From contig CP129473.1 of NCBI GenBank assembly GCA_030583745.1, positions 362,887 through 426,886 of the forward strand: 64,000 nucleotides of DNA. The letters are read 5' to 3'. Numbering within the stretch: position 1 is the stretch's first letter; each line of letters starts with the position of its first letter. The DNA comes from Minisyncoccota bacterium. Lineage in GTDB: Bacteria; Patescibacteriota; Minisyncoccia; Phycocordibacterales; BOKC01. Made by a program: the position numbers and the translations under genes. Under the pieces are notes generated by a model, which worked only from the letters and a program-made list of their open reading frames with translations, made no database searches and was not told where the DNA came from. Positions 40,101 through 43,100 of this stretch are shown here, in pieces.

Positions 40101-43100
40101 ACTTTTTCAACGCTTATGTAATTGTTATCAGACTTCCAATATTCCGTCTTGGTTCCATTTCCCTTACCCAGATTACCTAAAGACAAATTATCATAGTAGC
40201 GGCGAGTCTCGCGAATCTTGTTGCTATTTTGATCAAGTATTGTCTCTACGCTCGGCAAGTAAAACAAAGGTGGCCCACCCGTGCTTGTAGCGTAAGAAAT
40301 ATTAGTGGTAAATTTGTCGGATCCAATATCAGTAAAGGTGCCATTATCATTCCCGCTCACTTCTCCCCATTCAGTTCTCTGACTTATGTTGCCGGTACTG
40401 TTGTCATAAGAAAAGCTCGTGGCTTTTTCTCTGTGAGTGCTATTGCCGTCGTAGAGAAATTCAAGAGTATCAGCTAATTTTACAAATGAAGATTTGTTAC
40501 CCAAGTCAAACCTGTCCCACTTATTTATAGTTTTAGCATATAGATTTCCACTGTTGTCATATTGCTCAACACGATATGGCCTTCCAGCCTTGGAAACATG
40601 ATCGTTGTATTCTCCGGTGGAAGTTGCAGTTGTATTTCCTTGATGAAAATATGTTTTAGTTAAATTCCCCGCCGGGTCAGTTTTTTCCGTCCTCCCAAAG
40701 CCGACAAATTGTCTGAACTGATCAGCGTGATAGTAGTATTCGCCGTCAAAGTAGCTGTAAGAAGTTGTTGCTGTGTTTCCCAAGCCGTCGCCAACTCCCA
40801 TATTTTTAACAACATACAGGCTTTGCGGATAAAACGGCCGACGAGGATTCGGTCCCACTATCGCCTCAAGCTTATAGTCAAACTGAACGGTTCCTCCTTC
40901 CGACATATTTATCCTTGAAAGATAATCGGAAGCCTTTCCTTTATTGGAATATCTTCTTGGACTAAGATTATTGTTATTAGGAATTTGTCCATCATCGTCA
41001 GCCATATCGGGTGCAACTACGTAATCAGGCAAACCGTCGCCATTGACGTCGATAAGCTGGACGTATTCTCTAAGTCCCCAGAAGTAGTAATCTTGTTCGG
41101 TGGTGCGGTAATGGGAGGGCAGTTGGTAGAAGTCGGGGTCGAACTGCCAGCCGGTGCCGGTGTTTAAGTAAACTCTCGGCTTAAGGTTGTTGTTGTCGGG
41201 AATGATACCGTCATCGTCAGCCATATCGGGTGCAACTACGTAATCAGGCAAACCGTCGCCATTGACGTCGATAAGCTGGACGTATTCTCTAAGTCCCCAG
41301 AAGTAGTAATCTTGTTCGGTGGTGCGGTAATGGGAGGGCAGTTGGTAGAAGTCGGGGTCGAACTGCCAGCCGGTGCCGGTGTTTAAGTAAACTCTCGGCT
41401 TAAGGTTGTTGTTGTCGGGAATGATACCGTCATCGTCAGCCATATCGGGTGCAACTACGTAATCAGGCAAACCGTCGCCATTGACGTCGATAAGCTGGAC
41501 GTATTCTCTAAGTCCCCAGAAGTAGTAATCTTGTTCGGTGGTGCGGTAATGGGAGGGCAGTTGGTAGAAGTCGGGGTCGAACTGCCAGCCGGTGCCGGTG
41601 TTTAAGTAAACTCTCGGCTTAAGGTTGTTGTTGTCGGGAATGATACCGTCATCGTCAGCCATATCGGGTGCAACTACGTAATCAGGCAAACCGTCGCCAT
41701 TGACGTCGATAAGCTGGACGTATTCTCTAAGTCCCCAGAAGTAGTAATCTTGTTCGGTGGTGCGGTAATGGGAGGGCAGTTGGTAGAAGTCGGGGTCGAA
41801 CTGCCAGCCGGTGCCGGTGTTTAAGTAAACTCTCGGCTTAAGGTTGTTGTTGTCGGGAATGATACCGTCATCGTCAGCCATATCGGGTGCAACTACGTAA
41901 TCAGGCAAACCGTCGCCATTGACGTCGATAAGCTGGACGTATTCTCTAAGTCCCCAGAAGTAGTAATCTTGTTCGGTGGTGCGGTAATGGGAGGGCAGTT
42001 GGTAGAAGTCGGGGTCGAACTGCCAGCCGGTGCCGGTGTTTAAGTAAACTCTCGGCTTAAGGTTGTTGTTGTCGGGAATGATACCGTCATCGTCAGCCAT
42101 ATCGGGTGCAACTACGTAATCAGGCAAACCGTCGCCATTGACGTCGATAAGCTGGACGTATTCTCTAAGTCCCCAGAAGTAGTAATCTTGTTCGGTGGTG
42201 CGGTAATGGGAGGGCAGTTGGTAGAAGTCGGGGTCGAACTGCCAGCCGGTGCCGGTGTTTAAGTAAACTCTCGGCTTAAGGTTGTTGTTGTCGGGAATGA
42301 TACCGTCATCGTCAGCCATATCGGGTGCAACTACGTAATCAGGCAAACCGTCGCCATTGACGTCGATAAGCTGGACGTATTCTCTAAGTCCCCAGAAGTA
42401 GTAATCTTGTTCGGTGGTGCGGTAATGGGAGGGCAGTTGGTAGAAGTCGGGGTCGAATTCCTGATTGGTAGTTATTGTTTGATATTCAAATTCAGTAGGG
42501 GGCAATTGACCGATTGTGCTTGAAGCAACAACAGATTGAAGAAGTGATCGGTTGTCATTATAGCCGGTTGTATAATTCAATAAATATTCTTTTGTTAAAG
42601 AATTGTCAATTTTAATCTGAATATTTGAAATACGTTTTGATGTAATAACTTTAAATCCTGCATCATAGGACGGTACAGGGTCTTCCCTATTTTCATGGAT
42701 AAAATCAACAGTAAAAATACCGTCGTTAGAACTATGGCTAGTATATACAATACTTGATGGATATATTTGATTATTATCTCTAATGTAATTAAATTTTACA
42801 AAATTACTGTTAGCGTCACGAATCTCTTCAATCATCCATTTATAAATCTGGTCAGTTGATGAAGCATTAAGTTGTCGTGACTGTGTGGTTGTTCCAAATA
42901 AATATTTAGTTCCAGATTTATCAGTAACAATCCATTTATTATCAGAAAATTCATAGTTTAGAAAAGAGCCGTCTTCAACTCTGGATTTATAAGTGTTACC
43001 ACTGTCAAGCACGAGCTCGCCGGAAAGCGAAGAGGTAAATGTACTAGTTGCATTTGTATAGAATTGATGCGCTCCATTCCGATTTACTCTTTCAATGTAA

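Follow-up and report, generated by a model that had tools for sequence, protein, structure and literature searches.

Beta-propellers with blades up to 100% identical, some without one synonymous change, occur in about half of the propeller lineages, VCBS and FG-GAP included (PMC9218822). New propellers of this kind continuously arise when a single blade is amplified, and their blade numbers scatter about the value that the lineage prefers (PMC9218822). In TcB, a six-bladed propeller serves as the gate of the cocoon and as the domain to which TcA binds (PMC6868009). Rhs/YD polymorphic toxin loci provide a third point of comparison (Zhang et al. 2012, PMC3482391). The locus described here lies in a 64,000-nucleotide stretch of contig CP129473.1 (positions 362,887 to 426,886) from a Minisyncoccota bacterium, hereafter the window, and centres on an RHS toxin gene whose propeller region repeats a 219-bp blade-coding unit without a single mismatch. 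We consider it highly probable that this propeller was re-homogenised very recently from a single 73-amino acid (aa) blade, within a TcB-TcC-like RHS toxin whose native complement is seven blades. The process is already known from recently amplified propellers; what is new is the type of host protein and the phylum. The text of the survey of amplified propellers does not mention Rhs, SpvB or Patescibacteria, and toxins come up there only where VCBS propellers are discussed in general terms (PMC9218822). The window array would be a clean, zero-divergence re-amplification of a single blade in an undescribed setting, a TcB-TcC-like RHS toxin encoded by a Patescibacteria genome.

The toxin gene and its parts are listed below. 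Residue numbers refer to the longest open reading frame (ORF), 37130-43663, which encodes 2177 aa and starts 16 codons upstream of the start in the GenBank record; AF2 denotes AlphaFold2 and pLDDT its predicted local distance difference test score.

37130..43615, minus strand: whole gene, 2161 aa from Met17, an exact match to GenBank WKZ26179.1
42755..43240, minus strand: SpvB/TcB N-terminal domain, aa 142-303 (Pfam PF03534, E = 3.4e-16; AF2 pLDDT >90)
40889..42490, minus strand: seven-bladed FG-GAP/VCBS-type beta-propeller, ~aa 392-925 (Pfam FG-GAP_3, E = 2.1e-26)
40992..42457, minus strand: perfect tandem array of the 219-bp unit, 6.69 copies with 0 mismatches, encoding blades 1-6 in full and the initial 69% of blade 7
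40923..40991, minus strand: un-homogenised native tail of blade 7, GQIPNNNNLSPRRYSNKGKASD, with AT-rich codons, leading into a conserved post-propeller motif
37676..37975, minus strand: RHS repeat-associated core at the end of the shell, ARYQDGKVGRFISQDP...NNPLKHTDSTGEF (NCBIfam TIGR03696, E = 7e-16)
37130..37675, minus strand: C-terminal variable toxin domain, ~180 aa, assigned by its position after the RHS core

At the DNA level, Tandem Repeats Finder calls one array, with a period of 219, 6.7 copies, 100% matches, 0% indels and a score of 2932. A base-by-base comparison of the window with itself at an offset of 219 (w[i]==w[i+219]) matches at 1247 positions without a break, which corresponds to 1466 bp or 6.69 copies; that many consecutive matches at a fixed offset are beyond chance. 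The 219 bp flanking the array on each side are only 26-32% identical to their offset copy. The array forms part of the coding sequence of the minus-strand ORF 37130-43663 (frame 0), and one unit translates to the 73 residues FDPDFY...DVNGDGLPDYVV...VYLNTGTGWQ (in full, FDPDFYQLPSHYRTTEQDYYFWGLREYVQLIDVNGDGLPDYVVAPDMADDDGIIPDNNNLKPRVYLNTGTGWQ). The plus strand of the array region contains no long ORF, and the region matches no Rfam family. Blades 1-6 and 69% of blade 7 are 100% identical in both protein and DNA, above the >60% identity threshold of Pereira and Lupas. In the seventh copy, identity extends over the first 0.69 unit, after which comes a tail that is diverged yet homologous (DDDGQIPNNNNLSPRRYSNKG versus DDDGIIPDNNNLKPRVYLNTG in the unit). 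Tail and unit agree at 13 of 23 residues and show nine synonymous differences, eight of which have G or C in the unit and A or T in the tail. The tail motif ..KGKASDYLS.. is also present in P0236 and P0237, the two closest relatives of the protein. The first-pass annotation, made from the letters alone, had described tandem identical 219-bp copies at 40985-42455, a diverged distal seventh unit, and FG-GAP-type Ca-loop blades inside an RHS gene. The repeat and self-comparison tests bear out the copies and the diverged end, with limits that differ by 2-7 bp, and the Pfam matches to FG-GAP_3 and RHS_repeat (E = 3.4e-35) confirm the nature of the blades and of the gene.

The encoded protein follows the domain order of a fused toxin: a signal peptide, SpvB, seven FG-GAP/VCBS blades, an RHS/YD shell, the RHS-associated core and a C-terminal toxin. 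Met17 (window position 43615; MKVKNSVF...) opens a typical Sec-type signal peptide, as read from the sequence. The repeats fall within a recognised propeller family (FG-GAP/VCBS): seven DVNGDGLPD Ca-loop motifs are spaced exactly 73 aa apart, and a hidden Markov model of the blade matches the protein seven times. The shell is recognised by RHS_repeat and, for the YD repeats, by NCBIfam TIGR01643. The toxin tip has no match in Pfam even at E <= 1. The database record, WKZ26179.1, is a protein of a Candidatus Paceibacterota metagenome-assembled genome (MAG) on a 691,769-bp contig, and is the sole member of its 90% cluster. Judged by its domains, the protein appears to be a Sec-exported, fused TcB-TcC-like polymorphic toxin.

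Structural modeling is consistent with this assignment. The AF2 model of aa 125-1088 (pLDDT 77; predicted template modelling score, pTM, 0.82) contains seven four-strand groups with a 73-residue period, each unit contributing strand 1 (YVQLID), the Ca-loop, strand 2 (YVVA), a long acidic loop, strand 3 (RVYLN), strand 4 (WQF) and a linker. The best PDB matches of this model (Foldseek) are TcdB2-TccC3, TcdB1 and YenB, with E values of 1e-35 to 1e-29, and the SpvB N-domain 6p0x is among the fold matches. TcB proteins and TcB-TcC fusions (Photorhabdus TcdB2-TccC3, 4o9x and 6h6e; Yersinia YenB, 4igl) are the best structural matches of the window protein, and they have the order SpvB N-domain, propeller, RHS cocoon, autoproteolytic core and variable toxin in common with it. 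Whereas the TcB propeller has six blades, that of the window protein has seven. Also unlike TcB, the window protein carries a Sec-type signal peptide, lacks a detected TcdB_toxin_midN domain (PF12256, not reported by Pfam at E <= 0.01; precomputed in many relatives) and shares 15-21% sequence identity with TcB. All seven blades would close into a single ring. By analogy with TcB, this ring may plug or gate a toxin-filled shell, may offer a seven-fold symmetric target-binding face, or both.

The number seven is shared with the nearest relatives. A homologue search with the repeat-containing N-terminal half returned relatives at 34-36% identity, almost every one of which has six blades, of 55-63 aa. 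Neither the protein's own record, WKZ26179.1, nor either of its two closest relatives was among them. The word-seeded candidates of such a search are probably dominated by words from the seven-fold repeat, and a query with perfect repeats can thereby miss the nearest homologues. When the query is the part that follows the array, the nearest relatives are P0237 (2187 aa, ENA) and P0236 (2181 aa, JGI), each ~52% identical over ~2000 aa. Both have seven blades, spaced 71-77 aa apart, with the loop DxDGIIPxNNNxxPRVYLNTGxGW, as in the window protein. Because both carry seven blades of ~73 aa with the same loop, seven such blades are the native architecture of this sub-lineage. Six blades are the norm of the wider family (86 of the 114 relatives that have at least two blade matches). 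The earlier question of whether six or seven blades form the ring is answered differently at the two levels: seven holds for the sub-lineage, and six for the family at large. A 24-mer of the unit had 0 matches among JGI metagenome contigs, a search of JGI contigs for the P0236 locus gave only distant relatives (<=36% identical), and scans of GTDB genomes with the toxin N-terminus and with a neighbouring gene gave no close relative.

Blade comparisons within and between these proteins indicate where the identical blades come from. Identity among the blades of one protein is 1.00 in the window protein, 0.62 in P0237 and 0.52 in P0236, and no blade of the nearest relatives is more than 0.65 identical to those of the window protein. 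When P0237 is compared with P0236 at the protein level, a shared position brings no extra similarity (0.55, against 0.52 for blades at different positions). Taken at face value, this pattern would point to concerted evolution or to re-amplification that was independent, and away from a seven-blade ancestor whose blades had already differentiated. The nucleotide identity of the window blades had already been read as very recent amplification or concerted evolution, and that reading holds. The accompanying premise that natural propellers have divergent blades was too general, since identical-blade propellers are documented (PMC9218822).

Other relatives are partly homogenised too, some in their blade DNA and several more at the protein level, and would stand at earlier or later points of the same process. 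In a Thioglobus Rhs protein, blade DNA repeats as 186 bp x 3.8 at 91% identity; in a further relative, a 492-bp unit that spans three blades repeats x 2.1 at 89%, and another has blade DNA of 165 bp x 4.7 at 79%. Among full-length RHS relatives, P0316 has seven blades with a mean identity of 0.64, and P0292 and P0246 each contain one blade pair that is 0.90-0.95 identical; in these three, the blades of Patescibacteria toxins seem to have been re-amplified independently, whether locally or globally. On a separate contig, L003 (JGI 3300072335, Ga0618805_0001363, 1-8793), at least four SpvB-propeller genes of ~930 aa each stand as tandem paralogues, and three of them contain separate degenerate arrays in the propeller region, with periods of 147, 165 and 141 bp and 75-79% identity.

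The proposed mechanism is that neighbouring blade-coding units undergo unequal homologous recombination or replication slippage, which is the likely route. The outermost part of the last blade, with no homology on its far side, would escape homogenisation and retain the old sequence. An identical interior combined with a chimeric last copy that keeps an old distal third fits unequal crossing-over or slippage, in which edge repeats are not fully homogenised. Blade homogenisation would recur continuously in the sub-lineage, with the window array at its extreme end. This resembles the described amplified propellers in several respects. As in the Nostoc punctiforme Npun_R6612 WRAP and the VCBS/FG-GAP cases (PMC9218822, PMC6805158), the blades derive from one blade. 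As in amplified propellers generally (PMC9218822), a differing terminal strand or blade part is kept at the edge and blade number stays near the preferred value; going by their protein sequences, relatives may likewise be independently amplified. Unlike those propellers (PMC9218822), the host is a TcB-TcC-like RHS toxin of a candidate phyla radiation (CPR) bacterium, the propeller is internal and must mate with a shell, and its unit is rich in C at third codon positions (C3). Together with its two relatives (internal identity 52% and 62%), the window protein forms a small natural series for asking how a closed repeat fold can be rebuilt and still fit a partner domain.

Several observations weigh against this account or parts of it. 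In the AF2 model, the blade loops between strand groups are of low confidence (pLDDT <50), and no TcA-like ORF is present among the scanned window ORFs, so that a TcB-style gate is an analogy. A single deposited assembly underlies both the copy number and the absolute identity of the copies, and where a long-read assembly is polished with short reads, rare differences among the copies could be lost. A further objection is compositional. The GC content at third codon positions (GC3) is 0.64 in the unit, versus 0.36 in the rest of the gene and 0.34 in other genes, and among 13,729 windows of 73 codons from other ORFs there is not one that attains the value of the unit. If a native blade had simply been amplified in place, this codon composition would be left unaccounted for. 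Nor does homogenisation generally bring such a change: in seven scored relatives, four of them partly homogenised, the GC3 change of the propeller ranges from -0.20 to +0.05, without a rise.

Dependence on a single assembly raises the question of an artefact, in which the true number or sequences of the units differ and the assembler or polisher made the 6.69 perfect copies. We consider this improbable overall. A 1.47-kb array of identical 219-bp units is beyond short-read resolution, Pereira and Lupas warn about the assembly of identical blades (PMC9218822), and all the short-read assemblies of the species that were seen break at repeats in the toxin gene. Because short-read assemblies break there, a single complete copy of the protein is on record in ~15 billion sequences, although at least 17 other assemblies contain a SecA that is 99-100% identical to the one encoded in the window. 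A collapsed repeat would, however, leave one or two units, and the seven Ca-loops found equal the exact count in the two closest relatives, whose independent ENA and JGI assemblies contain divergent, easily assembled blades; a wrong copy number is unlikely to coincide with the seven of the sub-lineage. No k-mer is shared between the unit-to-unit junction and either flank-to-unit junction; each of them therefore needs supporting reads of its own. A contig from another read set adds to this: Logan contig L010 (SRR23332755; also in a second run) matches window 45318-42428 at 100% identity and breaks off after exactly 30 nt of the array, the k-1 overhang of a k = 31 unitig at a repeat entry, which indicates a true repeat-entry branch. 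The deposited sequence is also a single 691,769-bp contig that resolves the RHS-core repeats and three paralogous genes, which suggests long reads. The artefact raised as an alternative in the first-pass annotation has thus become an unlikely explanation of the array's existence and size, given the seven blades of the two nearest relatives and the L010 break, and we infer that the assembled copy number is exact.

If the array is real, frequent recombination might still make it a copy-number-variable scaffold, with 5-9 blades in the population and consequences for the gate, for target binding or for antigenicity. Long perfect direct repeats are substrates for recombination, and a 2.5-kb block appears to have been lost between short RHS-core repeats in a strain that is 98-99.9% identical. 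Gram-positive surface proteins such as the alpha C protein of group B Streptococcus offer a parallel: they are exported like the window protein, likewise contain identical in-frame repeats of >200 bp, and change repeat number by recombination without loss of frame. Their repeats are independent bead-like domains, any number of which folds, whereas the window repeats must jointly close a toroid, which constrains their number. Closely related VCBS propellers with 3, 4, 6 and 9 blades are documented (PMC9218822), and a study of engineered identical-blade propellers describes tolerance of differing blade numbers (PMC6805158). Yet no variant is seen: the protein cluster has one member, and the homologue search turned up no fragment that is near-identical but differs in unit count. 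Seven blades are common to the three members of the sub-lineage, a constancy that suggests selection for this number. Copy number may plausibly vary between cells, and a population of frequently changing rings seems rather unlikely. The label phase-variable, used in the first-pass annotation, does not apply; since 219 = 3 x 73, a change in the number of 73-codon units inside the ORF keeps every variant in frame, which rules out a frame switch and leaves no on/off state.

The composition of the unit bears on a further explanation, the import of a blade or of a whole propeller segment by recombination from a related gene of a genome richer in GC or C3, followed by amplification over the native blades. 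The excess is specific to C, which makes up 52% of the third positions of the unit (G, 12%) as against 13-26% elsewhere (13% upstream, 16% in SecA), and NNC/(NNC+NNT) is 0.78 in the unit versus 0.28-0.39 elsewhere. GC3 steps sharply at the 5' edge of the array, from 0.2-0.3 in the SpvB part to 0.65. This step, the C excess and the absence of comparable windows in other ORFs all favour import, as do the many family members from genomes with GC3 of 0.55-0.77. RHS genes are, moreover, compositional mosaics. The searched databases, however, contain no donor, the most similar blades being 64% identical, in P0237. The unit is 0.47-0.65 identical to the blades of P0236 and P0237, a range like that of the rest of the protein (~52%), and so looks vertically related; the native tail of blade 7 also has the same lineage-specific loop. 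Import accordingly keeps a low but appreciable probability beside re-homogenisation from a native blade. A combination of the two alternatives, in which C3-rich foreign re-seeding and an unstable heritable blade number give a CPR epibiont population with varied ring sizes that alter the gate of the toxin shell or the valency with which a seven-fold symmetric face binds host or target, would be improbable. GC-biased gene conversion as a general companion of homogenisation is not supported: the seven relatives show no rise of propeller GC3, and the excess in the window is of C, not of G+C. The composition of the unit is a concrete lead to the source of new blades.

The toxin gene as a whole is a compositional mosaic, with GC3 of 0.2-0.3 in the SpvB part, 0.3-0.55 in the RHS shell and 0.22 in the toxin tip. 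Genes of this kind are broken in nearly all short-read assemblies and are under-counted in protein catalogues as a result.

Downstream of the toxin gene, two further features complete the locus.

36867..37127, minus strand: 86-aa ORF, candidate immunity protein, directly downstream of the toxin gene (assigned by position)
34227..36841, minus strand: orphan RHS-tip toxin/immunity cassettes, bounded by 65-nt direct repeats that are RHS-core remnants

A protein identical to that of the 86-aa ORF adjoins the RHS 3' end in two other assemblies; neither this ORF nor the other small ORFs match Pfam. The first orphan cassette consists of a Tse2-like ADP-ribosyltransferase tip and an 82-aa ORF, the second of a PT-TG tip and a DUF7674 ORF. 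Copies of the 65-nt repeat lie at 34227-34291 and 36777-36841, with a third at 37971-38035. The cassette block is absent from MAG GCA_964587925.1 (L011, CAZPMP010000030.1), which is 98-99.9% identical, and the junction lies inside the 65-nt repeat. This difference reflects either a recombinational deletion or insertion between strains, or a collapse in the short-read MAG. The layout is that of a classical polymorphic-toxin locus, with an immunity function suggested by position. It shares with Rhs/YD loci (Zhang et al. 2012, PMC3482391) the RHS shell, the core, the variable tip, the small downstream ORF and the orphan cassettes. Whereas Rhs/YD toxins have a PAAR/VgrG-linked or WapA-like N-terminus, the N-terminal half of the window protein is TcB-like (SpvB and propeller), and the amplified array lies in this half, not in the polymorphic tip.

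The remainder of the window is chromosomal and includes SecA, GatB, MurD and a surface-polysaccharide cluster. The more distant SecA matches are from Patescibacteria, and the SecA matches together indicate that the organism is a widespread CPR bacterium. The toxin locus sits within the surface-polysaccharide cluster, which is of the nonulosonic-acid type (19448-34144 and 48637-53576) and encodes NeuB, a Wzy-like ligase, a flippase, a GT4 protein, an epimerase/dehydratase and methyltransferases. The toxin gene is immediately preceded, on its upstream side, by a tandem of three paralogous genes (43825-48407), each of ~480 aa and with weak Capsule_synth matches. Near them, a 123-nt intergenic repeat occurs at 45278-45400 and 48394-48516 with 86% identity, and contig L010 starts within it. 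Further along, an ORF at 54915-56657 has HerA-like domains as well as domains of the TrwB/VirD4 coupling-protein type; for Patescibacteria, a type IV secretion system is on record (bioRxiv 10.1101/2025.01.22.634366).

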